Shown here: positions 5,151 through 35,604 of the stretch, one piece after another
Layout of the letters: each line of letters begins with the position of its first letter
How positions within the stretch are numbered: position 1 is the stretch's first letter
DNA from: Candidatus Woesearchaeota archaeon
GTDB lineage: Archaea; Nanobdellota; Nanobdellia; Pacearchaeales; GW2011-AR1
DNA length: 38,499 nt
Assembly: GCA_964555925.1 (NCBI GenBank)
Contig: CAZKUJ010000003.1
Span: 1 to 38,499 of the forward strand
Reading direction: 5' to 3'
Notes under the pieces: generated by a model
Databases searched by the model: none
Told to the model about the DNA's origin: nothing
Seen by the model: the letters and a program-made list of their open reading frames with translations, nothing else
Translations under genes and position numbers: made by a program

Positions 5151-5255
5151 TTGAGGGACTGAATTTTCATTTATTCTCTTTTTTATCAATAAATTTATAT
5201 ACATAATTCCCATATTTTTTTTATGAAGCTAAAAAGAGGAAAAGGGGGCTTTTTT

Positions 5256-7085
5256 ATGAAAAATTCTAAAGGACAGGTAACGATTTTTATTATCATTGCA
5301 ATTCTTATTGTGGTTGGAGCACTGATTTACTTTTTTTTAAGGGGTTCTATGACTGAAACAGCTATTCCAGCACAGATGGAGCCTGTTTATGCAAATTTTT
5401 TAGCGTGTTTAGATGGAGCAACAACTACTGGAATAAGTGTTCTGAATTCTCAAGGAGGATATATTTATCTACCAGAATTTGAACCTGGTTCTTCTTATAT
5501 GCCTTTTTCATCGCAACTTAATTTTTTAGGAAATCCAGTACCTTATTGGTATTATGTCTCTGGAAATAATTTAGAGAAAGAACAAGTTCCAACAAAAAGA
5601 ATGATGGAGGACCAACTAAGTGCTTTTATTGAGCAAAAAATAAATAATTGTGATTTTACTTCGTATTATTCAGAAGGTTTTGAAATCTCGTTAACAGAGC
5701 CAAAATCAAAAGTTACAATCAAAGAAGATAAAGTTGAAATTAGTCTAGATGCTCCTTTAAGAATTGTAAAAAACGAGGAGAGTGTTCTTGTAAGAAATCA
5801 TAAAGTTACTGTGCGTTCGAAATTAGGTTCTTTGTATGATTCTGCAAAAAAAGTTTATGATAACCAGCAAGAGACTCTGTTTTTAGAAGAGTATGGCTTG
5901 GATGTTCTATGGAATTATGCGCCTGTTGATGGTGCAGAGATTACATGTTCTCCTCTTATTTGGAAAGCAGACGAGGTTTTTGATGAATTGCAAGAAGCTA
6001 TCGAGGTAAATACTTTTGCTCTTACAACAAAAAGCGCAAGAGACGATTATTTCTTTGTTGATATTCCTGTAAAAGAAGAAGTTCGCTTTTTGAATTCAAA
6101 AAACTGGCCAAATACTTTTGAAGTTTCTCCTGCAGAAGGGAATATTCTTTTGTCTACTCCTGTTGGAAATCAACCAGGCTTAGGAATTCTTGGATTTTGC
6201 TATGTTCCGTATCATTTTGTTTATGATTTAAAATATCCTGTTATGATACAGGTTCAATCTGGAGATGAAATCTTTCAGTTTCCTATGGCTGTTATTATAC
6301 AAGGAAATAATCCAAGAGAACCTCTAGATGCTGAAGCTGTAGAAGAGGCTGATCTTGATCTTTGCAAGTATAAAAATACACAAATAACAGTCAAAGTTAT
6401 AGATAAAAAGAATAATCCAATAGAAGCTGATATTTCTTTTGGATGCTTTGCGAACAAATGCAATATTGGAAAGACATCTGATGCAGGAATGCTTGTTGAA
6501 AATTTCCCTCAGTGTGTAAATGGATATGTTTCAGCAAGAGCCTCTGGATTTAAAGAAACAAGATATTTGTTTTCAACAGTCTCTTCTGGAAGTGTAAATA
6601 TAATTATGGAAAAACTTTATTCTAAGGGAATTCAATTAAAACTTGACAGAGTAAATTATAATGGAAATGCAATAATTTATTTTATTTCAGAGGACTCAAC
6701 AAAAACACTTGTTTATCCAGAGCAAAGAATTGCAGAGCTTGGAGAAGGACAGTATGAAATTCAGGTTTATATCTTTCAAAATTCTTCAATTAATTTAGAA
6801 GGAATGACTACAGAGCAATGTTTAGATGTCCCAAGAGCAGGAATTCTTGGGGTTCTGGGATTAAAGCATGAAAGGTGTTTTGAGATTGAAATTCCAGAGC
6901 AAACTATTTCGCAGGTTCTTTCTGGAGGTGGAACGCAGAATTATTATGTTTTAGAATCAGAATTAATGAGGCCGGGTTATATTGAGATATCTACAGAAAG
7001 TATCTCAAAACCTGAAAATCTTGAGCAATTGCAAAACAATCATCTTTTATTTGAGGCTAAGAGCCTTGAAATAAAATTTTTATAA
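5256..7085 (+). CDS. Exported protein with class III (archaeal pilin/archaellin-like) signal peptide
   Basis: MKNSKG|QVTIFIIIAILIVVGALIYFF. ATG 5256 follows AGGGGG and is preferred over the track start at 5223. Several Cys, beta-rich C-terminal part. Confidence 0.8.
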   Translation: MKNSKGQVTIFIIIAILIVVGALIYFFLRGSMTETAIPAQMEPVYANFLACLDGATTTGISVLNSQGGYIYLPEFEPGSSYMPFSSQLNFLGNPVPYWYYVSGNNLEKEQVPTKRMMEDQLSAFIEQKINNCDFTSYYSEGFEISLTEPKSKVTIKEDKVEISLDAPLRIVKNEESVLVRNHKVTVRSKLGSLYDSAKKVYDNQQETLFLEEYGLDVLWNYAPVDGAEITCSPLIWKADEVFDELQEAIEVNTFALTTKSARDDYFFVDIPVKEEVRFLNSKNWPNTFEVSPAEGNILLSTPVGNQPGLGILGFCYVPYHFVYDLKYPVMIQVQSGDEIFQFPMAVIIQGNNPREPLDAEAVEEADLDLCKYKNTQITVKVIDKKNNPIEADISFGCFANKCNIGKTSDAGMLVENFPQCVNGYVSARASGFKETRYLFSTVSSGSVNIIMEKLYSKGIQLKLDRVNYNGNAIIYFISEDSTKTLVYPEQRIAELGEGQYEIQVYIFQNSSINLEGMTTEQCLDVPRAGILGVLGLKHERCFEIEIPEQTISQVLSGGGTQNYYVLESELMRPGYIEISTESISKPENLEQLQNNHLLFEAKSLEIKFL

Positions 7086-7086
7086 A

Positions 7087-10000
7087 ATGAAAAAAGAAAT
7101 CAGAAATAAAAAACAGAGAATTGTTTTGAATATTTCTTTATTTGTAATTTTCCTAGCAAGTGTTCTGCTTATTAATCTGGCTTCAGCAGAATCATATTCT
7201 CGATCAGTTACAGGATATAGCCAATATGTTGGCGTGCAATATTCTACTGGAGATACCTACTTTCCTTTTGTATATGGTGCTGACGGAAGTTTTAACAGAA
7301 ATCTTTGCCAGGCAGGACAGGATTTTCTTCTTTATGTTTCTCCTACAGGATGTATTCCTTCTGTTGTGAGAAGTGATTTGCTTGAAGAGCAAAATGTTCC
7401 TGTTTTTTGTCCGATTATGGCAACAAAACTTAATCCTTTAATAAATGTTGACGCAATAGATTATGTTTCTTTTAGAGGAAATACTCCTAAAGAAGTTTCT
7501 GGAATTGGATATTATCCTGCGCAAGCTGCATTGGGAAAAGCCGGTTTTCAGGTGACTTCTTCTTTAGCAAACAATATAGGTTATGCAGTTATTGTTTTAA
7601 AACAACAAAAAAACGAATCTGCAATGCCTAGTTTTGTTGAAGGAAATATTACTGCTGTAATAAAATACGATATTAAAAATGCGTTTGGAGTAGGACAAGC
7701 ATCATTTTATCTTCCTGTAATGAGTGACGCAGAATGGAATGAAAATTTTAAAAGATATGGTTTTTGGCAAGGAAGAGGTTATCTAAGAGTAGATTCTGTT
7801 GAAGATGATAGAGCAACAATTTCGATTTATTCAGATAGAGAAACATATAGTTTAGCAAAAACAGACAAAAAAGTTGTTGCAACTGTTCCGATTGAAATAG
7901 GAAAAACCTCAAGAGAAATACTCATGCCTGGTTTTGATTATTGTATGGGTGGTTTACAATTAAAACTTAATGGAATTGAAAATCCTGATACGATGGTCAA
8001 ATTAAATGTGAATGGAGATTATTTTGATTTAAAAAAAGGAGAGAAATTCATCGATGAAAAATGTTATGTAAAAAATCTAGATAAAAGAGGTGTTATTGAA
8101 TCAGTAGAAATAACTTGTAGAGAAGATGTAAAAACAAATACCTTTTCTCTAAGCATAAATCCAAAAATTGTGCTTGAGATGGGTGGAGTTGCAAGAAATT
8201 ATAGTCTTGGTGAGAAATTATACGCAGAGATTAAAGACGGAAAAGAAACTGGAAAATCTGTTTATCTTGTTTATGCTAGAACAAAAGGAGATACAAGAAA
8301 AGAAGAAAATCTAACGGTCACTCTTGCCGCTATTCCTGGAAATGCAGAGAAATTAAGTGATAGTGATTTAACTTCTATTGGAAAATTTTTAAATAAATAT
8401 CCTTCACCCGAAAAAAGCAGCACAATTGCGGAGAGAGGGATTAATGCACTTAAATCTGTTTTATCTGGAACAGGACTAATTCTTAGGGGAATAATAGAAG
8501 GACAAGCTTTTAAGGACATCAATGTTAATGAACCAGCAAAAGAACTTTTTGGAAAAAATATAAAACTTATTGGATTTGCAGGTGCAAGAGATGCAGATAC
8601 TTCTCGGTTTTATCCTTTATTTAAGGAATATTATGATAATGCTATGAAGGATTATAATGCGATTATAGGTAATTATCCTAGTGAAAAATATCCTCAAGAA
8701 GAGCAAATAACTTTAGGACAAAGGGCTTTAACTGAAATGATAGGTCTTGCGTATAAAGCGCAACAAATGAGAACAATTATGGATTTGTGCAGGAATTTTG
8801 AAGAAAAATATTCAAATTTTGATGTTCCAGATGTTTGCCAAGATTCTCATAAACTTTCAAGTTTTGATGCTTCTTCAAAAGATGTTGAGATTGGAGGAAA
8901 AGTTTACAGTATTTCAATGGTTAGAATTCAAGAACCTTCTTTTGAAGATTTAGGCGTAACAATTGATATTAGCGGAACATCTGTGAATTTTACTGGTTCT
9001 AGAGATTTGCGTTTGAATGATAGAGTATATGTTAATGAATCAGAATATATTTCTTTAATTGGGCTTGAAAAAGATTATGCTGTTTTTGATATTAGCGGGA
9101 TAAGTAGAGCAGCAACTACAGTTGGAAGCACTGTAAAGATAAATTTAAATTCTTATGAGCTTGTCGGAAGCAATAATTATCGTATTGGCGTAACCACAAT
9201 TAATCTTAAAAAAGTAGCAAAGGTTTCTGTTATTCCACGCATAGAACGCGAAACAACTAACGCAACATTTTCATTTAAGATAGGAATTGAAAAAAGGGGA
9301 ATACAACTTACTCCTGAAAAAACACAAGAGAGAATTGAAAAACTTAATAAAACAATTGCTCAATGGAAAAATCTAAATGAAAAATTAGGCAGCGTGGTTA
9401 AAGCAGGTAAAGCAGCATGTCTTGTTACAGGGACAGCACTTACTATTAAAAATTTCTTTGCAAATCTTAAAGGTGAAGGAATTGCAAGAGAAATGGTTAT
9501 GAGGAAATCTGGAGGATGGTTTGAATTTTGTGAGGTAGAAAAGATTAAAACAGGACAATCAGTGGACTCTTGTTTGTTAGCGAATTCTGATAAGATAGAT
9601 TCCAATGTAGAAGAAGTTACTAAAATAATACAAGAGCAAAATAACAAATACAAAGAACTTCAAGAAGGAATAACTAAGAGAACTGATTTTTTAGGAGAAG
9701 ATGTTGTTGATACAGATGCATTAATGAAAAGATTTGTTGATGAAGACCCACAGTTTAAGAATGATTTGAATAATATTGTAAATAAACTAGAGAAGGTTAA
9801 AATTAGCGGCTCTGATGTGAATGTTTCAGAGATAATTAAAGGAATCAATAGTGAAACAATTACTTTAACTCAGGCAAGAGAGATTCAATTGAATTCTAAA
9901 CTTTTGAATTCTGAAGACGCCAAAATAAAAGAAATTGCGAAAAAGAATTTAGAAGCAAGTTTAGGAGATGTTTGGGTTAATTCAAGAGATAAAATTGCCG

Positions 10001-13000
10001 TAAATACTCTTAAAGATAAACTTCCAGATGGTTTGAAAGATTTAGGAGTAAGTGTTCGTGCTCAAGGAACCGCGATTACAGAAGTGTATGAAGGAAAAAC
10101 AACAACCCAGCAAGTTGGCCAAATTCCTGCGAATGTTCCTGCACAAACATTGATTTATGGTGGAAAAGATTATATCATAGAACTTGAAAAAGCAGGAGAA
10201 ACCTATAGAGTTAAAGAAATTTATGATACTATGGGAAACAAAATAGATAGTACTTTATCAGCATATCAAGAAATAAAAAATAAATTTATATTTAGGCAAT
10301 TCGACAAAACCACATATAAAAATCCGTCTACAACAATGGTGTTAAGATATTATGAAACTGGAAATTATAAGGGTGTTCCTGCAATTGTTCCTTTTGACAC
10401 TTCAAATGGATGGTATGCTGCAATTAAACCATCTATTCCAATACTTGGCGCAATAAAACCTGTTGATGATTCTGGAAGAGTTTCAAGTTTCTGGCTGTGT
10501 AATGTTGGATCAAATAAAAAAGAAGAATTCTTTGAGCTTACTGATTCTGGAAGAGGAGATGATATCTGCCAGATGATTAATCGCGCAACAGGACAAACAT
10601 ATGACTCGTTTCCAGGACTTGATTCGAGCGAGGCATCTAAATTAGTTAATAATGCACAGCTTGCAATCTCGCAAGCCCAAAGAGCTTACAAATCAGGAAT
10701 GAGCAATAAAGTGAATATACTCGGAAAATCTATTTCATTAGGAGAACCTACTTTTGGCAATCCCGATATACAATGTCAAGATTTTATGTCTCCTAAAGAC
10801 TGCAATCTTATGTTTAATGTTTGTGACCCTGTTGTTTGTCCAAGTTCACGATGTAATCTAGGTGGTGCCTATACTGTAAAAGATGTAATTCAATCAGGAA
10901 TAGCAGGAAGCATTGCTCTTTGTCTTCCTAATTTCCCAGAAGTTATTGTTCCTGTTTGTCTTTCAGGAGTTCATGCAGGAATTGATGGTTATCTAAGTGT
11001 TATGGAATCTTATCAAGAATGTTTGGAAACTAGTTTGAAAACAGGGCAAACAGTTGGAATTTGTGATTATTTAAATTCTGTTTATATGTGTGAATTTTTC
11101 TGGAAGCAATCTTTACCTGCTGTAAAATACGTTGTTCCTAAATTAATAAGCAAGATAGTTGGACAAGATGTTCGCGGAGGAGGAGAGTATCTTAGTGCTA
11201 AAGATGCATGGGAAAAAGCAGGAGATTCTGTGGATTTCTTTACCCAGTATTATGCAGCTAATTCTTATGCTGCTTTTAAAGCAAGATCACTTGAAGGAGT
11301 TGGAACTGAATTTTGTAAAAATTGGCTTTCGATTCCTGGTTTAGGAAATGGAGAACTTTTTGATGCTTTGATAGCTCCTGATTCTCCGTCTCAATTTTAT
11401 GGAAGTTTTGAGGAAATACCTTTTACAACAGCAACTGTTCCACCAATTTCACAATATAAGGTATTTTATCATATTTATGCTGGAAAAGATTTACCTGCTT
11501 ATTATGAGGTTTATCTAAAAGGAGATGTTGGTTATTATTATCAAGATGTTTCTTCTAGAAGACTTGTTGCAAGAGGATTTATTGCTACAGGAGAGAGTGC
11601 ATCAAATACAGAAGATTTCACAGCTCCTTCAGGATATAATGAACTTTGTATTGTTGTAAATAATCAAGAAGAGTGTGGATTTAAGCAGGTTTCAACTGAT
11701 TTTGCTGTCCAGTATATATCAGATAGTTTTGTTGCCCAACAAGCTAAACAAACAGATGTTACTAGTTCAACTGAATGTGTCTCTGGAACATCTAGTCTTC
11801 TTAGTTTATTAAATCCAAATCTTCAGGCAGGAGCAACTGAATTGCTAAATCCTGCAATTTACAATAGAGGAATTATTAGAATCTGTTCAACAGATAATCC
11901 TGGAAAAACAACAGACTCTTATGCGGGGACAGAGAAAGCAAGATGGAAAGAAGTTGGTTATTGCGACACTACTGCAATAAAATGCTGGCTTGATACTAAA
12001 AGTGTTAAGGACACAATAGAAATAGGAACAATTGAAAACGCAACTCTGAGCGAGGTGTCTACTAATTACTTATCAATTTTAATGAATGGTTCAGATTATG
12101 TTGAAAATTTTGATGAGCTTGTTAAGGAAATTGAAAATGAAAATGTTTTGACTGAAAAAATAAAAAAAGTAAATGAAAATTTAGACAAAGTCTATTTTAA
12201 TTATCAAAAAGGCTATCTAACATTATTAAGAGGAGATGCTTCTAAAGCACTCGCTAATCTTGCTATCTCGCTAAAAGTATCTATTGCAGGTACAGAAACT
12301 ACTAGCGATAAAACTGAAACTCCTCCTAGCGATAAAACTGAAACTGTTTCTGATTACAGAACCCCTATAGATAACATAGGAATAACATCTCCAATTCTTG
12401 AATATGAGTCTGGAGGAACCCTCGGATTAGGCAAAAACAAGGTTTATTACATATACTCTAAAAGTAAGTGGTATTTTTCTCTTACTGGAGAACAAAAAAC
12501 AGAAGAATGGTTTCCTATAGATAAAACTCTTCCAGAATATGGAAAATTATCCACGAAAAATCAAGAACTTACAAATAGTTTAGTTGATAAGTCTTATTTA
12601 GATGGGCTTATGCTGTTGATTTACAAAACAACCCAGAATGAAGATGGCGGTTTTTTGTCTAATGTGTATTTATCTACAAAAAGAATTGAATTTTCACACA
12701 ATAAAAGATTTACATTCCAATCATATGAACCATTAACTTTTTATTTTGAATATGATGATTCTTTAAAAAAATGGAAGTGGTCTGATAATAAAGAACAATG
12801 GTTTTCAGTTTCAGAGAACATTTCATCTGCATCAGATACAGCGCAATTAGCACTTGCGTACGAAACAGAAAATTTAAGACCTTTAATAGAGAAATTTAAA
12901 AATTTAGTAGGAGCACTTAGAGAAAAATCATTTTATCAAGGATCTGCATTAATTTTTCAAATTGATGCAGTAGAATTTTCGATTGAAACTCCTTCTGAAG

Positions 13001-13542
13001 CCGAAACTTGTCCTGTTCCAAGTCCTACAGAAGCAGTATTAGCAATATCAGATCCTCAAAAAAGAGTTTTGAAAACAGTAGAGGAGCTTAATGGAAAACC
13101 TGCCCCTGGTTCTTCTTGTTTTCATTCAATTGAATTTGTTTATAGAAGCGCAGCAGTTGATTTTGGATGTACATATTCTGATAAGTCAGGTCAACAATAT
13201 AATATAGATGGAGAGATAATAATTATAGGTGAAGATAAAGATGCTCAAAATGCAATTATCTTTCTTGTGCCAACAGGAGCAAGCTCTTGTAAATATCCTC
13301 TCGGCGCATTAAATTATCAGCAAAAGCTAGACCAAATTCAACCAGGAGATTGGTTAGATGTTGCATGGACAGATAAATCATCTCATGCTGTCATATTTAT
13401 TGGATGGGAGAATAAAGAAAAAGGATATGCACGAATATTTGATTGGATAGGCGGAGGAAGTAGGACCTATGGATATCAAAATGTATATTTAACAGAAAAT
13501 ACTAATCCTGTTTATTTGCATAGAAGTCCTGTACTGGCGTAA
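7087..13542 (+). CDS. Giant (2151 aa) Cys-rich exported protein with putative C-terminal NlpC/P60- or CHAP-like peptidase domain
   Basis: Sec-type signal (FVIFLASVLLINLASA|ES), Cys-dense core (CQDFMSPKDCNLMFNVCDPVVCPSSRC), C-terminal SCFHSIEFVY...IQPGDWL...SHAVIFIGW. Starts 1 nt after the upstream stop. Confidence 0.75.
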   Translation: MKKEIRNKKQRIVLNISLFVIFLASVLLINLASAESYSRSVTGYSQYVGVQYSTGDTYFPFVYGADGSFNRNLCQAGQDFLLYVSPTGCIPSVVRSDLLEEQNVPVFCPIMATKLNPLINVDAIDYVSFRGNTPKEVSGIGYYPAQAALGKAGFQVTSSLANNIGYAVIVLKQQKNESAMPSFVEGNITAVIKYDIKNAFGVGQASFYLPVMSDAEWNENFKRYGFWQGRGYLRVDSVEDDRATISIYSDRETYSLAKTDKKVVATVPIEIGKTSREILMPGFDYCMGGLQLKLNGIENPDTMVKLNVNGDYFDLKKGEKFIDEKCYVKNLDKRGVIESVEITCREDVKTNTFSLSINPKIVLEMGGVARNYSLGEKLYAEIKDGKETGKSVYLVYARTKGDTRKEENLTVTLAAIPGNAEKLSDSDLTSIGKFLNKYPSPEKSSTIAERGINALKSVLSGTGLILRGIIEGQAFKDINVNEPAKELFGKNIKLIGFAGARDADTSRFYPLFKEYYDNAMKDYNAIIGNYPSEKYPQEEQITLGQRALTEMIGLAYKAQQMRTIMDLCRNFEEKYSNFDVPDVCQDSHKLSSFDASSKDVEIGGKVYSISMVRIQEPSFEDLGVTIDISGTSVNFTGSRDLRLNDRVYVNESEYISLIGLEKDYAVFDISGISRAATTVGSTVKINLNSYELVGSNNYRIGVTTINLKKVAKVSVIPRIERETTNATFSFKIGIEKRGIQLTPEKTQERIEKLNKTIAQWKNLNEKLGSVVKAGKAACLVTGTALTIKNFFANLKGEGIAREMVMRKSGGWFEFCEVEKIKTGQSVDSCLLANSDKIDSNVEEVTKIIQEQNNKYKELQEGITKRTDFLGEDVVDTDALMKRFVDEDPQFKNDLNNIVNKLEKVKISGSDVNVSEIIKGINSETITLTQAREIQLNSKLLNSEDAKIKEIAKKNLEASLGDVWVNSRDKIAVNTLKDKLPDGLKDLGVSVRAQGTAITEVYEGKTTTQQVGQIPANVPAQTLIYGGKDYIIELEKAGETYRVKEIYDTMGNKIDSTLSAYQEIKNKFIFRQFDKTTYKNPSTTMVLRYYETGNYKGVPAIVPFDTSNGWYAAIKPSIPILGAIKPVDDSGRVSSFWLCNVGSNKKEEFFELTDSGRGDDICQMINRATGQTYDSFPGLDSSEASKLVNNAQLAISQAQRAYKSGMSNKVNILGKSISLGEPTFGNPDIQCQDFMSPKDCNLMFNVCDPVVCPSSRCNLGGAYTVKDVIQSGIAGSIALCLPNFPEVIVPVCLSGVHAGIDGYLSVMESYQECLETSLKTGQTVGICDYLNSVYMCEFFWKQSLPAVKYVVPKLISKIVGQDVRGGGEYLSAKDAWEKAGDSVDFFTQYYAANSYAAFKARSLEGVGTEFCKNWLSIPGLGNGELFDALIAPDSPSQFYGSFEEIPFTTATVPPISQYKVFYHIYAGKDLPAYYEVYLKGDVGYYYQDVSSRRLVARGFIATGESASNTEDFTAPSGYNELCIVVNNQEECGFKQVSTDFAVQYISDSFVAQQAKQTDVTSSTECVSGTSSLLSLLNPNLQAGATELLNPAIYNRGIIRICSTDNPGKTTDSYAGTEKARWKEVGYCDTTAIKCWLDTKSVKDTIEIGTIENATLSEVSTNYLSILMNGSDYVENFDELVKEIENENVLTEKIKKVNENLDKVYFNYQKGYLTLLRGDASKALANLAISLKVSIAGTETTSDKTETPPSDKTETVSDYRTPIDNIGITSPILEYESGGTLGLGKNKVYYIYSKSKWYFSLTGEQKTEEWFPIDKTLPEYGKLSTKNQELTNSLVDKSYLDGLMLLIYKTTQNEDGGFLSNVYLSTKRIEFSHNKRFTFQSYEPLTFYFEYDDSLKKWKWSDNKEQWFSVSENISSASDTAQLALAYETENLRPLIEKFKNLVGALREKSFYQGSALIFQIDAVEFSIETPSEAETCPVPSPTEAVLAISDPQKRVLKTVEELNGKPAPGSSCFHSIEFVYRSAAVDFGCTYSDKSGQQYNIDGEIIIIGEDKDAQNAIIFLVPTGASSCKYPLGALNYQQKLDQIQPGDWLDVAWTDKSSHAVIFIGWENKEKGYARIFDWIGGGSRTYGYQNVYLTENTNPVYLHRSPVLA
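12302..12345 (+). repeat. 20-bp direct repeat (24-nt period) encoding the TSDKTETPPSDKTET linker
   Basis: CTAGCGATAAAACTGAAACT at 12302-12321 and 12326-12345. Confidence 0.9.
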
Positions 13543-13591
13543 AGATGCGAGACAAGTGAATGTTCTGTCGCATTTTTCATTTTATTTCAAA

Positions 13592-13675
13592 TGCGGGAGA
13601 TAGGATTCGAACCTATGTAGGCACTAAGCCATCAGGTCCTAAACCTGACCCGTTTGACCACTCCGGCACTCCCGC
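13592..13675 (-). tRNA. tRNA-Leu(TAG)
   Basis: Reverse complement: GCGGGAG/CTCCCGC-A, anticodon arm TCAGG-TTTAGGA-CCTGA, long variable arm GGCTTAGTGCC, GGTTCGAATCC. Confidence 0.96.
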
Positions 13676-13748
13676 ACTCCAGCATGTAGATTTCTGCTTT
13701 AAAAATATTATTCGCAAGATATTTAAATCTATTCTAATTATTTAAGAA

Positions 13749-23126: not shown

Positions 23127-25610
23127 ATGGAATACAACTACGACTTTAATAAAATCGAGCAAAAATGGCAAAAGAACTGGGAGAAATCAAAAATTTTTGA
23201 AGTAAAAGACAATACAAAAAAAAAGAAATTTTATGTTTTAGACATGTTTCCATACCCCTCTGCTTTAGGGCTTCATATGGGGCACGCTTTTGTTTTTTCA
23301 TTAGGTGATATTTTTGCAAGATTTAAGAGATTACAAGGATTTAATGTTCTTTATCCGATTGGATATGATGCCCTAGGCTTGCCAGCTGAAAATGCAGCCA
23401 TTCAAGCGAAAATCCATCCTTTAGAATACACAAAAAATTCAATTAAGAACTTTATGAAACAACAAAAAGCTATGGGCTGGAGTTATGACTGGAATCGTTT
23501 AATAAATACTTCTGAACCGAATTATTATAAATGGGATCAGTGGATTTTTTTAAAAATGCTTGAAAAGGGAATTGCTTACAGAAAAAAAGCACCTGTTAAT
23601 TGGTGTTCTAAATGCGAAAGTGTTCTTGCAAATGAACAGGTTGTTAATGGATGTTGCTGGAGACACGAGGATACTTTTGTAGAAATAAAACATCTAGAGC
23701 AATGGTTTCTTAAAATTACTAATTATGCTGAAGAATTGCTTAGGGGTCTTGAGAAATTAGATTGGCCAGAGAATGCGAAAAAATTACAAAAAAACTGGAT
23801 TGGAAAATCATCAGGAACAGAAATTGATTTTGAAATTATAAATTCTGAAAAAAGTCTTGGAAAATGGCAGATATTTACGACCAGATCTGATACGATTTAT
23901 GGGATTACATTTATGGTGGTTTCTGCTCAGCATTCTCGACTTGAAGGGCTAATTGTTCCAAATCAGAAAAGGGAAGTTGAAAACTTTCTAAAAAAATTAA
24001 AGGGGATTTCTGAAAAACAATTGGAAGATATGGAAAAAGAAGGTGTTTTTACAGGAAGCTATGCAATAAATCCTCTTACATTAGAAAAAATTCCAATATA
24101 TGTGGGAAATTTTGTTGTTGCTGATTATGGCTCTGGAATGGTTATGGCTGTACCTGCTCATGATTTCCGCGATTTTGAATTTGCAAAGAAATATTCTCTT
24201 CCTGTAAAAGTTGTGATAAATTCCCAAAATTCTAAATTAAAAAAAGACAAAATAGATTCTGCTTATGTTGGAGAAGGCAATCTGATAAATTCAGGAGAGT
24301 TTAATGGGCTTAACAACAAAGAAGCAATTGAAGCTATTACTTTGCATTTAGAGAAGAAAAAATTAGGCAGAAGAAAGATTAGTTATAAATTAAGAGATTG
24401 GCTGATTTCTCGTCAAAGATATTGGGGAACTCCCATACCTGTGATTTATTGTGAAAAATGTGGAATTGTTCCTGTTCCTGAGAAAGATTTACCTGTTGTT
24501 CTGCCAAAAAAAGTTGAATTTGGCAAAGGAAATCCTTTACTCACAAATGAATCCTGGTTAAAAGTTAAATGTCCAAAATGCAGAAGGAATTCTAGAAGAG
24601 AAACAGATACTATGGACACTTTTGCTAATTCTTCGTGGTATTATCTAAGATATACAGATCCAAATAACAATAAAAAAATTTTTGATAGCAAAAAAGCGAA
24701 TTATTGGGCCCCTATTGACCAGTACATTGGCGGACCAGAACACATTACTGCGCATTTAATTTATGCTAGATTTTATACAAAATTTTTAAGAGATTTGGAA
24801 ATTATTAACTTTAATGAGCCTGCCCTAAGATATTTTACTCAAGGAATTGTCCATGCTTCTGATGGAGAGAAAATGTCCAAATCAAAAGGAAATGTTGTTG
24901 AACCTTTGAATATAATAAAAAAATACGGAGCAGACACTTTAAGGCTTGCGTTGGTAAGCATAGCTTCTTCGGATAAAAATACAAATTGGGATGAAAAAAT
25001 TGTTATTGGAAGCCACAAATTTCTGAATAAAGTTTATAATTATTTTGCAAATTTTAAAAAAGGAAAAATTAATTCCTTTGTTGAGAGCAAATTAAATAAA
25101 ACAATCCAGAAGGTTACAGATTATGTTCAGAATTTTAAATATAATCTTGCGGTCATAGAATTAAGAGAACTTTTTTCTGTTATTGAAGAGCAAGGAATTG
25201 ATAAAAAGAATGCTTCTAAATTTTTAGCAATGTTGCATCTTTTTTGCCCTTTTATTACTGAAGAGCTTTTCTCTAAATTAGGATTTAAGAAATTTTTGAG
25301 TTTATTTCAATGGCCAGAAGCTGATGAAAGCAAAATAGATGAAAAATTGGAAGAACAAGAATTAGCTGTAGATAAATTAGCAAAAGATATTAGGAATATT
25401 CTCGGAATTTTGGAATTGCGGGGAGAAAAAGAAAAGAAAATTGCAAGAATTTATTCTGTTCCTCAAGAAATGAATTTTTACAAAGAAAACACCCTAAAGT
25501 TGGAAAAGTCTACTTCTTTGAAGATTGAAATTTATTCTATAAAAGATGCTGCAAAAACCGGTAAGCAAATTCAAGCTAAACCAGGAAAACCAGGAATTTA
25601 TCTTGAGTAA
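23127..25610 (+). CDS. leuS: Leucyl-tRNA synthetase (bacterial-type core)
   Basis: DMFPYPS...HMGH, DALGLPAENAA, LANEQV, CP1 editing domain (TTRSDT, AVPAHD), RDWLISRQRYWGTPIP, KMSKSKGN. Confidence 0.97.
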   Translation: MEYNYDFNKIEQKWQKNWEKSKIFEVKDNTKKKKFYVLDMFPYPSALGLHMGHAFVFSLGDIFARFKRLQGFNVLYPIGYDALGLPAENAAIQAKIHPLEYTKNSIKNFMKQQKAMGWSYDWNRLINTSEPNYYKWDQWIFLKMLEKGIAYRKKAPVNWCSKCESVLANEQVVNGCCWRHEDTFVEIKHLEQWFLKITNYAEELLRGLEKLDWPENAKKLQKNWIGKSSGTEIDFEIINSEKSLGKWQIFTTRSDTIYGITFMVVSAQHSRLEGLIVPNQKREVENFLKKLKGISEKQLEDMEKEGVFTGSYAINPLTLEKIPIYVGNFVVADYGSGMVMAVPAHDFRDFEFAKKYSLPVKVVINSQNSKLKKDKIDSAYVGEGNLINSGEFNGLNNKEAIEAITLHLEKKKLGRRKISYKLRDWLISRQRYWGTPIPVIYCEKCGIVPVPEKDLPVVLPKKVEFGKGNPLLTNESWLKVKCPKCRRNSRRETDTMDTFANSSWYYLRYTDPNNNKKIFDSKKANYWAPIDQYIGGPEHITAHLIYARFYTKFLRDLEIINFNEPALRYFTQGIVHASDGEKMSKSKGNVVEPLNIIKKYGADTLRLALVSIASSDKNTNWDEKIVIGSHKFLNKVYNYFANFKKGKINSFVESKLNKTIQKVTDYVQNFKYNLAVIELRELFSVIEEQGIDKKNASKFLAMLHLFCPFITEELFSKLGFKKFLSLFQWPEADESKIDEKLEEQELAVDKLAKDIRNILGILELRGEKEKKIARIYSVPQEMNFYKENTLKLEKSTSLKIEIYSIKDAAKTGKQIQAKPGKPGIYLE

Positions 25611-33167: not shown

Positions 33168-33226
33168 AATATGTCCTGAGAAAATTTAGATAAAAATTTA
33201 TATAGGGATAATATTTTTTGCTATTT

Positions 33227-34387
33227 ATGGAGGAAAAATCGATTTCTAATCTGGAAATAGCACCTTTAGAAAATATAAAAAAAGAAGTAAAAGAAGAGAT
33301 GAAAGAAGATACTAAAAAAGAAATTACCAAATCCCCCCCTAAAAAAGAGAGCTTGGAAGAAAAAAAGAACATAATAGATGTTTTGAAAATATTTTCTCCG
33401 GGAACAGCCATAAGAACAGCCTTAGATGATATTCTTCATGCAGGTATGGGTGCATTGATTGTTTTTGAAAAAGAGGGTTTGTATAGTGTTATAGATGGAG
33501 GATTTAGAATTAATTGTAAATTCAGCCCATCAAAACTTGTAGAGCTTTCAAAAATGGATGGGGCAATAGTTGTTTCTGCTGATTTAAAAAAAATTCTATA
33601 CGCTAACACTCTTTTAAGCCCAAGTGTTAAAATTGCAACAAAAGAAACAGGTACGCGACATAAGGCAGCAGAAAGAACAGCAAAGCAGTTTCAAACAATC
33701 GTAATCGCTGTGTCTGAAAGAAGAAGAAAGATTTCACTATATTTTGGAAATGAAAGCCATTATCTTGAAGAAACATCTGAAATTTTGAGAAGAGCTGCCG
33801 AGACTTTACAAATTTTAGAAAAACAAAAAGATATTTTTGATGAACTTCTTTCTCATCTTAATGTTTTGGAGATTACTAATTTAACAACTATGAGCGATGT
33901 TTGTGGGGTTTTGCAGACTGCAGAAATAATACGAAGAATATCTGAAAATGTTAAAAGATATCTAATTGAACTTGGAAAAGAAGGAATTATAGTTAGTATG
34001 AGATTAAGAGAACTGATAAAGAATCTAAATAAAGAAAGAGAAAGCATAATCAAGGATTATTTCTCTTCTGGAAGAATAAAAAAAGACGATATGTTAAAGA
34101 ATATGAATTTTGATTTTTTACTTGAAACCTCAAATATTCTTAGATTCCTTTTTGGGGAGCTTCACGATAAACCAATTTCATCTAAAGGTATGAGAATTCT
34201 TTCTAAAACCAATCTGCTTAAAAAAGATGTAAAAATTCTTTTGAACATGTTCAAAACTCCAGATAAACTATTCAATGTCGATAAAGAATCTTTAACAGCC
34301 ATATTCAAAAATGAGAATTTTGTTGATTCACTTTTTGATGAAATTAAAAATCTAAAAGAAAAAATTCTTATGGGTAAGAGAATTTAA
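33227..34387 (+). CDS. disA: DisA-type diadenylate cyclase
   Basis: SPGTAIRTALD, GALIV, GGFRINC, ELSKMDGA, ETGTRHKAAER, VSERR, then a DisA linker (RYLIELGKEG...RLREL). ATG 33227 preferred over TTG 33218. Confidence 0.92.
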   Translation: MEEKSISNLEIAPLENIKKEVKEEMKEDTKKEITKSPPKKESLEEKKNIIDVLKIFSPGTAIRTALDDILHAGMGALIVFEKEGLYSVIDGGFRINCKFSPSKLVELSKMDGAIVVSADLKKILYANTLLSPSVKIATKETGTRHKAAERTAKQFQTIVIAVSERRRKISLYFGNESHYLEETSEILRRAAETLQILEKQKDIFDELLSHLNVLEITNLTTMSDVCGVLQTAEIIRRISENVKRYLIELGKEGIIVSMRLRELIKNLNKERESIIKDYFSSGRIKKDDMLKNMNFDFLLETSNILRFLFGELHDKPISSKGMRILSKTNLLKKDVKILLNMFKTPDKLFNVDKESLTAIFKNENFVDSLFDEIKNLKEKILMGKRI

Positions 34388-34560
34388 TTCAAAATAAATT
34401 TTTAATATAATTGTTAAATTAACCGGTTTTTATTTAGATGAAATTCAGATAGATAATAATCCTCGTTATATAGATAATATAGTCAATAATTATCAATTTT
34501 CAGAAAAATTTGATTAATGTCTAATTAAAGTTTAAATACTTTATTTTGCTAATCCAAATC

Positions 34561-35604
34561 ATGCTTACAAAAAAACAAGTTGAAGAAATAAAAGAGCACC
34601 TCTCAAAAGCTCAAAATCCAATATTTTTCTTTGATAATGATCCGGATGGATTTTGTTCTTTTCTTTTGCTCCAGAGATATATTGAAAGAGGGAGGGGTGT
34701 TCCAATAAGATCTTTTCCAGGATTAGATAAAGATTATCTTAGAAAAGTAAGTGAATTCAGAGCAGATTATATTTTTATTTTAGATAAACCTGTTGTTTCT
34801 GAGGAATTCTTCAGAGAAGTAGAAAAAATAAATATTCCTGTGGTTTGGATAGATCATCATGCTATTGAAAAAGAACTGATCCCTCATTTTGTTTCTTATT
34901 ACAATCCTTTATTTAATCGGTCTAAAAAAAATGAACCTGTAACCGCTCTTTGCTATCAAATAACTGATAAAAAAGATAATTTATGGATAGCTATGGTTGG
35001 ATGCGTTGCAGACCAGTTTATGCCTAAATTTTATAATTTCTTCAGGAAAAAATATCCAGATTTAGCGGCCTCATCAAAATATCCCCCAGACATTTATTAT
35101 CGCTCTCAAATCGGAAGAATTGCAAGACTTATGGATTTTGCCCTTAAAGATACAACAACAAATGTAATGAATATGGTAAGATTTATGATAAAAGTCAAAA
35201 CACCTTATGAGGTTCTTGAAGAAAATAGTAAGAATTATACAATGCACCGGAGATTTAAGCAAATAGAAATAAAATATCGGGATTTATTGAAAAAAGCAAG
35301 CCCTATTGGAAGAAATAAAGAGAAAATGCTTTTTTTTCAATATGGTGGAGATTTAAGCATAAGTGGAAATCTTTCAAATGAATTATACTATCTTTTTCCA
35401 GAGAAAATAATTGTTGTTGTTTATATCAAGGGAGCAAAAGCGAATGTTTCTATGAGGGGAAAGAAAGTTAGAGAAGTAATAATTGAAGCAATAAAGGGTC
35501 TTGAGAATGCTAGTGGCGGAGGCCATGAAAATGCTGTTGGTGGACAACTCAATATAGAAGATTTAGAGAAATTTAGAGAGAACCTTAAGAGACTTATCGG
35601 TTAA
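34561..35604 (+). CDS. DHH/DHHA1 family phosphoesterase
   Basis: DNDPDG, FILD, WIDHH, SMRG and GGGHENAVG motifs. ATG 34561 preferred over TTG 34546. Confidence 0.92.
   Translation: MLTKKQVEEIKEHLSKAQNPIFFFDNDPDGFCSFLLLQRYIERGRGVPIRSFPGLDKDYLRKVSEFRADYIFILDKPVVSEEFFREVEKINIPVVWIDHHAIEKELIPHFVSYYNPLFNRSKKNEPVTALCYQITDKKDNLWIAMVGCVADQFMPKFYNFFRKKYPDLAASSKYPPDIYYRSQIGRIARLMDFALKDTTTNVMNMVRFMIKVKTPYEVLEENSKNYTMHRRFKQIEIKYRDLLKKASPIGRNKEKMLFFQYGGDLSISGNLSNELYYLFPEKIIVVVYIKGAKANVSMRGKKVREVIIEAIKGLENASGGGHENAVGGQLNIEDLEKFRENLKRLIG

Follow-up and report, generated by a model that had tools for sequence, protein, structure and literature searches.

A probable, divergent NlpC/P60-CHAP-like cysteine hydrolase domain at the end of a giant archaeal protein

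The stretch of DNA analyzed here (the window) comprises 38,499 nucleotides (nt) of Candidatus Woesearchaeota archaeon, positions 1 to 38,499 of contig CAZKUJ010000003.1 in assembly GCA_964555925.1. An open reading frame (ORF) at 7087..13542 of its + strand encodes a giant protein of 2151 amino acids (aa) plus stop, and the locus raises the question of what the last part of this protein, its tip, does and on which substrate. An earlier note, made from the sequence alone, had read the tip as a papain-like Cys-His domain of the NlpC/P60 or CHAP type and had proposed an exported peptidase aimed at the wall of a bacterial or pseudomurein-walled host or prey. Having weighed the alternatives, we consider it probable that the giant is exported and that its tip is a divergent NlpC/P60-CHAP cysteine hydrolase, which cuts bacterial peptidoglycan at cell contact.

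Residues and predicted fold of the terminal domain

The four motifs and the three residues named in the earlier note were located in the translation by script, and all of them were found at the positions given there. SSCFHSIEFVY occupies residues 2009-2019 (nt 13111-13143), LDQIQPGDWL residues 2081-2090 (nt 13327-13356), SSHAVIFIGW residues 2098-2107 (nt 13378-13407), and ARIFD residues 2115-2119 (nt 13429-13443), each on the + strand. On the same strand, the codon of Cys2011, the proposed nucleophile, lies at 13117..13119, that of His2100, the proposed general base, at 13384..13386, and that of Asp2119, the candidate third residue, at 13441..13443. The domain was correctly described as the last module of the giant, and its assigned span, 13051-13542, does cover the stop codon and residues 1989-2151. 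Conservation, however, sets in slightly upstream of this span, near residue 1973 (nt 13003). Based on the structure model, fold matches, and family alignments described below, we place the putative NlpC/P60-CHAP-like papain-fold cysteine peptidase/amidase domain at residues ~1973-2151 (13003..13539, + strand). An overlapping gene opposite the tip was considered and set aside, with no ORF of at least 80 aa on that strand there.

A HMMER scan with residues 1954-2151 against 1.84 billion representative proteins returned 82 matches at E ≤ 1e-3, of which 54 reached E ≤ 1e-10 and 6 reached E ≤ 1e-30. Given the 82 matches, a chance resemblance of the motifs was set aside. The family was aligned using the best domain copy from 74 of 89 stored proteins, leaving out 15 whose best match spanned fewer than about 120 query positions. 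Pairwise identity of the homologous copies to the query ranged from 27 to 68%. Cys2011, His2100, Gly2087, Phe2104, Trp2107, and Ala2115 were each present in 74/74 copies, the nucleophile being set in the context (S/N)C(F/W). Position 2119 was less strict, with Asp in 67 of the 74, His in 3, Glu in 1, Gly in 2, and Ser in 1, so that Asp, His, or Glu was found in 71/74. If the tip were a catalytically dead domain, serving only to bind walls or to adhere, complete retention of Cys and His at this level of divergence would be hard to explain, and we regard such a role as extremely unlikely.

Two further cysteines, Cys2028 (69/74) and Cys2068 (70/74), are highly conserved; judging from the alignment, a disulfide between them is possible and would suit an extracellular protein. 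Among species genomes, the one named close relative found is a metagenome-assembled genome (MAG) contig of 'Candidatus Pacearchaeota archaeon' (L002), sharing 67% identity over the 182-aa domain. Members of a related cluster are labeled 'hypothetical protein [Candidatus Pacearchaeota archaeon]' at NCBI. One contig each of sequencing runs X14 and X2 carries a T>G variant at 13444, replacing Trp2120, beside Asp2119, with Gly; six of the 74 homologues have Gly at this position.

The AlphaFold2 model of residues 1970-2151, computed from a 29-sequence alignment, reached a predicted local distance difference test score (pLDDT) of 93.9 and a predicted template modeling score of 0.89. In model numbering, helix 42-52 starts with Cys2011, His2100 lies within strand 129-140, and Asp2119 is part of the next strand, 145-152. 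The predicted layout of secondary structure is that of papain-like NlpC/P60 enzymes. The model was compared with 48,161 PDB chains by VIA-align, and the matches were classed by entry title; for a few endolysins, the class is what we take it to be. All of the best 18 matches, and 25 of the best 28, were NlpC/P60 or CHAP wall hydrolases. The list was headed by 8h1i_A (PlyGRCS) and 6bim_A (Trichomonas NlpC1), both with a Z score of 8.7, followed by 6ist_C (8.5) and 7cfl_A (8.2). CwlO, LytE, SagA, MepS, RipA, and RipB came next, down to a Z of 6.6, and other groups with a papain fold, namely C39 peptidases, a transglutaminase, CdiA-CT, and Tae effectors, scored 5.8 or less. In these structural alignments, sequence identity to CHAP endolysins was 10-16%. 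Foldseek led to the same families at weak E-values: its best-ranked PDB matches were mostly MepS, CHAP endolysins, RipA, and Acd24020, and the named viral ones mostly endolysin, CHAP, or NlpC/P60 proteins. The ESM Atlas pointed to CHAP/NlpC/P60 clusters (score 0.90) and to unnamed clusters plus one of DUF1989 (0.92-0.93), which were taken as leads only. The confident model and the fold searches together support the papain-like fold proposed in the earlier note.

The link to NlpC/P60 at the level of sequence is transitive only, through the homologue P0080, because direct profile comparisons were not significant. P0080, a distant match of 327 aa, carries the domain twice, each time in a shorter version, and it exceeds the Pfam NLPC_P60 cut-off (29.8 bits versus 23, E 6.3e-7). 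Comparison of the family profile (A1) with P0080 using hhalign yielded a probability of 97.3% and an E-value of 1.7e-11, placing Cys2011 on C227 and His2100 on the His of 'EHCG'. When P0080 was in turn compared with four PF00877 domains of E. coli K-12 (probability 78%, E 1.8e-5), C227 fell on the invariant Cys of DCSG and the P0080 His on the invariant His. His2100 also aligned directly, weakly, with a His of MepS, which we take to be the catalytic one. With Cys2011 at a helix start and His2100 in a β-strand of the model, both residues occupy the canonical places, and by way of this bridge they align with the catalytic Cys and His of MepS-type domains.

The tip resembles NlpC/P60 enzymes (PF00877; E. 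coli MepS/Spr, B. subtilis LytE/CwlO, and M. tuberculosis RipA) in fold class, with Z scores of 7-8, and in the order of its elements: a Cys at a helix start, PGD, a His in a strand, and a polar residue in the next strand. It differs in spacing: owing to an insert that itself bears Cys, 89 residues separate Cys from His, versus ~51 in the E. coli domains. This insert of ~52 residues (13171..13326, + strand), flanked and crossed by Cys2028 and Cys2068, separates the Cys helix from the PGD and His strands and is missing from P0080, a short, bacterial-type homologue. The tip family further differs in its nucleophile motif, which is DCSG in NlpC/P60, and the hairpin preceding the third residue is longer in the tip than in the E. 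coli domains. Among the fold matches, phage endolysin CHAP domains rank level with the best, PlyGRCS (8h1i, 8.7) and LysIME-EF1 (6ist, 8.5) being joined by LysGH15 (4olk, 7.5). The His-to-third-residue spacing of the tip is 19, which presumably resembles that of CHAP; unlike CHAP domains, the tip has no match to PF05257 at E ≤ 1.

A number of results weigh against this assignment. No Foldseek match reached E ≤ 1e-3; the lowest E-values were 1.4e-2 in the PDB (MepS) and 1.7e-3 among viral models (BFVD). Best Z scores of 7-8 are common even for models without true relatives, and for this reason the case for the fold rests on the uniformity of the list plus the residues, not on the score. At E ≤ 1, Pfam searches with the domain and the whole giant gave only noise of 14-15 bits (FimA, 15 bits). 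The tip did not reach the gathering cut-off of NLPC_P60 (PF00877, 23 bits), and the giant had no match to CHAP (PF05257) or Amidase_6 (PF12671); for Amidase_6, sub-threshold matches only were seen in the homologues P0074, P0080, and P0056. For the tip domain, there was no match in NCBIfam and no meaningful one in PHROGs. Searching PDB sequences with the giant, profile A1, and P0080 returned no match, and a six-frame search of the genome for PF00877 returned 0 matches. Direct hhalign comparison of the family profile gave probabilities of 2.4% with MepS and 2.8% with the four E. coli PF00877 domains, neither of which is significant. The position of Asp2119 is occupied by Ser in the bridging homologue P0080, making the role of Asp2119 less certain. 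Taking both sides into account, we assign the tip to the NlpC/P60-CHAP fold and superfamily with high confidence.

The giant, its upstream partner, and an exchangeable end

A Kyte-Doolittle scan shows a single strongly hydrophobic segment in the giant, residues 9-37 (7111..7197, + strand). It is probably a Sec signal peptide, with a cleavage site read by eye between ASA and ES, or an N-terminal anchor, and this sequence feature suggests that the giant is exported. Full-length relatives measure 1877-2184 aa. Directly upstream, at 5223..7085 on the + strand, an ORF encodes a partner protein of 620 aa, the stop of which lies 2 nt before the start of the giant. The partner has one N-terminal hydrophobic segment, residues 13-45, and no family match in Pfam or NCBIfam. 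Its N terminus, SKGQ followed by VTIFIIIAILIVVG, has the look of an archaeal class-III (pilin-type) signal when read by eye. At all three loci of homologous giants with upstream DNA (L017, L018, and L020), the ORF directly upstream shares 50-54% identity with the partner.

Residues 1 to ~1730 (7087..12276, + strand) form the conserved body of the giant. Matches to it were present in 38 of 40 other genomes from the same family and mostly stopped at residues ~1720-1740, and it is common to 53 of the 54 domain-bearing proteins of at least 900 aa. Its most conserved part, residues ~1200-1600 (window 10700-11900), abounds in invariant Cys, Pro, and Gly residues (as in CDPVxCPSSRCNLGG). An AlphaFold2 model of body residues 1040-1730 from 13 sequences reached a pLDDT of 57.6, falling below 50 in the Cys-rich conserved part; it was too poor for fold searches and was left unused.

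The distribution of the tip domain is patchy. It was detected in nine of 401 genomes sampled from the phylum, the present one counted, and in 4/27 other genomes of the family, and was not found with this query in two genomes of the same genus, each ~92% complete. To characterize what other giants carry at this end, 32 homologous tails were fetched and, leaving out a 100-aa stub (L047), 31 were scanned at Pfam cut-offs. SLT was present in five tails (L016, L020, L025, L041, and L044), Peptidase_M23 plus Amidase_3 in one (L029), matrixin-type Peptidase_M10 in one (L018), and DUF1615 in one (L042). A hidden Markov model of the tip domain matched L002 only; with this query, the domain was not found in the 31 sampled tails of sister giants. 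The remaining 23 of the 31 tails had no Pfam family above cut-off, and ankyrin repeats occurred in two domain-bearing giants (2/21 larger proteins scanned). Wall enzymes do not account for all of the variable ends.

Relationships among tails extend beyond the named families. Those of L017, L019, and L023 and the end of L029 are mutually linked by BLAST and display an E-S...G(I/V)MQ motif, and the SLT regions of L044 and L025 show a BLAST link to the L017 tail as well. The unnamed tails may hide more enzyme or binding modules. Further BLAST groups among tails L021-L046 are L018/L021/L032, L026/L038, and L027/L033/L045. At L029 (304-4800, - strand; G401 contig C8), a homologue of 3,247 aa has a tail of 1,400 residues that combines Peptidase_M23 and Amidase_3 with an SLT-like end, so that a single scaffold bears three wall enzymes.

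Between body and tip lies a pre-tip module, residues ~1741-1961 (12307..12969, + strand), defined by BLASTP matches to the tails of L017 (E 5.8e-15) and L019 (5e-11) and to part of L029. In genome G281, of the same genus, the giant carries this module followed by an SLT-like end, and no copy of the tip domain was found there; in L002, the tip domain directly follows the body, without the pre-tip module. These two arrangements indicate that the modules are shuffled independently. Among copies in proteins of at least 900 aa, 23/48 are strictly C-terminal and 25/48 are followed by 43-1584 more residues. The domain also exists in stand-alone forms of ~200-250 aa with hydrophobic N termini.

The enzyme module is exchangeable, a cassette that the conserved 1,700-residue body and the conserved upstream partner would present. 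A bolder extension is that the two-gene unit of membrane partner and giant forms a contact organ of Pacearchaeota, in which cassettes (SLT, NlpC/P60-like, M23 plus amidase, M10, and unnamed ones) are swapped among close relatives to match the wall chemistry of different bacterial hosts, comparable to the tips of phage tail lysins or polymorphic toxins. We offer this only tentatively and think it rather doubtful. If it were true, the type of tip would predict the host range of uncultured Pacearchaeota, and the unannotated tips would hide more new families of wall enzymes.

Murein-cutting companions and candidate substrates

In the mechanism that we propose, Cys2011 would act as the nucleophile and His2100 as the base, probably with Asp2119 as the orienting third residue. 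At sites where archaeon and bacterium meet, the tip would cleave the peptide portion of the bacterial peptidoglycan, either at a stem-peptide or cross-bridge bond or at the N-acetylmuramic acid-L-alanine (MurNAc-L-Ala) amide. It would probably work beside a separately encoded, secreted SLT lytic transglycosylase, so that the wall is opened locally for attachment or feeding. We infer the substrate, the bond cut, the cooperation with SLT, and the biological purpose alike.

The choice of bacterial murein is suggested by the company that the domain keeps. Of 51 domain-bearing proteins scanned, seven contain SLT above the Pfam cut-off (3/30 smaller and 4/21 larger ones) and one contains YkuD (1/21 larger ones). 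The giant itself has no SLT domain (Pfam, E ≤ 1). A stand-alone SLT lytic transglycosylase of 226 aa with a hydrophobic leader is encoded elsewhere (L048 1423-2103, - strand; G000 contig C5); it is the only PF01464 match in the genome and lies between ribosomal-protein-like and Cbf5-like genes, on a contig other than that of the giant.

The earlier note had left the wall open between bacterial murein and pseudomurein. The former is supported by context, through the domain companions and through the SLT, M23 plus Amidase_3, or M10 that homologous giants carry in place of the tip; the latter has no support from the neighbors. An enzyme cutting the pseudomurein of methanogen hosts, in the manner of the PeiW/PeiP endoisopeptidases, would accord with a Cys-His-Asp enzyme in an archaeon, since Pei enzymes are cysteine peptidases. 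On the other hand, the exchangeable neighbors, SLT, Amidase_3, M23, and YkuD, belong specifically to the chemistry of murein. The 50 VIA-align matches listed include no Pei-like entry, which is no proof of absence. We judge a pseudomurein substrate very unlikely.

Some features of the tip would also fit a papain-fold enzyme acting on proteins, whether by cutting or by transglutaminase-like cross-linking. Its targets could be the archaeon's own surface proteins, an archaeal host's surface layer, or, by way of self-release, the very giant that bears it. A transglutaminase (7c9j_A, Z 5.7) and C39 leader peptidases (6mpz_A, 5.8; 8vp3_A, 5.6) are among the structural matches, and the relative L018 has a matrixin-type protease at the same end. 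The hosts of cultured DPANN are archaea, according to passages of Castelle et al. 2021 (PMC8204110). The transglutaminase and C39 folds nevertheless lie 2-3 Z units below the wall hydrolases, the partners of the domain on the same polypeptide are SLT and YkuD, and the bridging homologue P0080 passes NLPC_P60. For these reasons, a protein substrate appears unlikely.

A third possibility is that the enzyme turns over or scavenges free peptidoglycan fragments as food, with no contact-dependent breaching of a living host. It agrees with the tiny genome (457,547 bases in 26 contigs, 87% complete) and with the argument, made in passages of PMC11537232, that Pacearchaeota use peptidoglycan-derived amino acids. 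A conserved surface protein of 2,000 residues with a conserved membrane partner would be costly for a simple digestive enzyme, though, and we find this use quite unlikely.

Contact-dependent cutting of bacterial peptidoglycan accordingly stays our preferred reading, and three considerations temper it. Pfam recognized no peptidoglycan-binding module in the giant. The substrates of papain-fold enzymes also include proteins and lipids. We know of no host for this archaeon. Pacearchaeota are abundant, uncultured, and host-dependent, and to our knowledge their hosts are not known to anyone. A core surface protein whose enzymatic end always comes from the murein-cutting toolbox would be strong genomic evidence for bacteria, not archaea, as their partners or prey. 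The tip is small (~180 aa) and confidently modeled, which makes the hypothesis directly testable.

Genomic setting and relation to known systems

The window is from a very small Pacearchaeota-type DPANN archaeon. Archaeal neighbor genes include those for TFIIB, Gins51, S3Ae, S8e, tRNA-intron endonuclease, TFIIE-alpha, and deoxyhypusine synthase. A tRNA-Leu(TAG) gene at 13591-13676 (- strand) lies 49 nt downstream of the stop of the giant and is followed by TFIIB. This tRNA accounts for a 4-fold depth spike in the 13428-13728 bin of metagenome runs, and it is probably also the cause of the many loose contig ends at ~13591-13631 in such runs. A leucyl-tRNA synthetase gene (23127-25610, + strand) matches the Pfam editing domain tRNA-synt_1_2 (PF13603, E 1e-64), which we take to mark the bacterial-type form and which would be unusual in an archaeon. 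At 33218-35604 (+ strand), a DisA-type diadenylate cyclase (DAC plus DisA-linker) adjoins a DHH/DHHA1 phosphoesterase. The two are a possible make-and-break pair for cyclic di-AMP in a 0.46-Mb genome.

At least 0.6 of the sampled words of the giant gene were found in nine runs, all labeled lake water metagenome, of which one may be the source of the assembly. Run X14, which is filed as a metatranscriptome, contained seven short contigs that were 99-100% identical to partner, giant, and tip, one of which, at 13333-13697, covers the His/Asp part of the tip. DNA can occur in such libraries, and these contigs cannot show transcription; gene parts without X14 contigs carry no meaning.

How does this giant compare with systems that have been described? 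A family of giants of up to ~3,000 aa was proposed to bind or degrade bacterial murein (Castelle et al. 2021, PMC8204110). From the description in that paper, as distinct from its sequence list, we infer that the present giants are its fam00969. In the passages concerned, the SLT giants are similar to ours in lineage, size class, extracellular prediction, and proposed role (PMC8204110). The body of the giant is homologous to that of SLT-ending giants, with several of the 38/40 matched sister genomes having an SLT end. Unlike the fam00969 giants, this member lacks SLT and has an NlpC/P60-like cysteine hydrolase end instead, a kind of end that those passages of PMC8204110 do not mention.

Archaeal modular peptidoglycan hydrolases kill bacteria, and their homologues are especially prominent in Nanoarchaeota, as stated in passages of Strock et al. 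2025 (PMC12352652). The giant would be similar to these enzymes in being archaeal, secreted, and aimed at bacterial walls, and it differs in its giant scaffold, theirs being small two-domain enzymes as far as the passages describe them (PMC12352652). The survey criterion given there is one Pfam catalytic plus one Pfam wall-binding domain (PMC12352652). A survey of this type would miss the giant, because neither domain is present at Pfam thresholds. More generally, domain-based surveys undercount archaeal wall hydrolases, since the tip is invisible to Pfam, NCBIfam, and PHROGs.

By analogy only, the architecture recalls Rhs/CdiA-type effectors and the Tae effectors of type VI secretion systems, which likewise join a conserved, long N-terminal body to a C-terminal enzyme cassette that varies. 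At Z scores of 5.0-5.2, the tip has its fold in common with Tae2, Tae3, and a CdiA-CT entry. The body showed no homology to these systems, and no immunity gene is expected, only the ORF list having been inspected for one. A full-text search, which did not extend to supplements, found no paper linking NlpC with Pacearchaeota or NlpC and peptidoglycan with DPANN. Set beside these systems, the giant family itself is already published, though for its SLT domain alone, and the NlpC/P60-like tip is a real, divergent, and unannotated variant of it.

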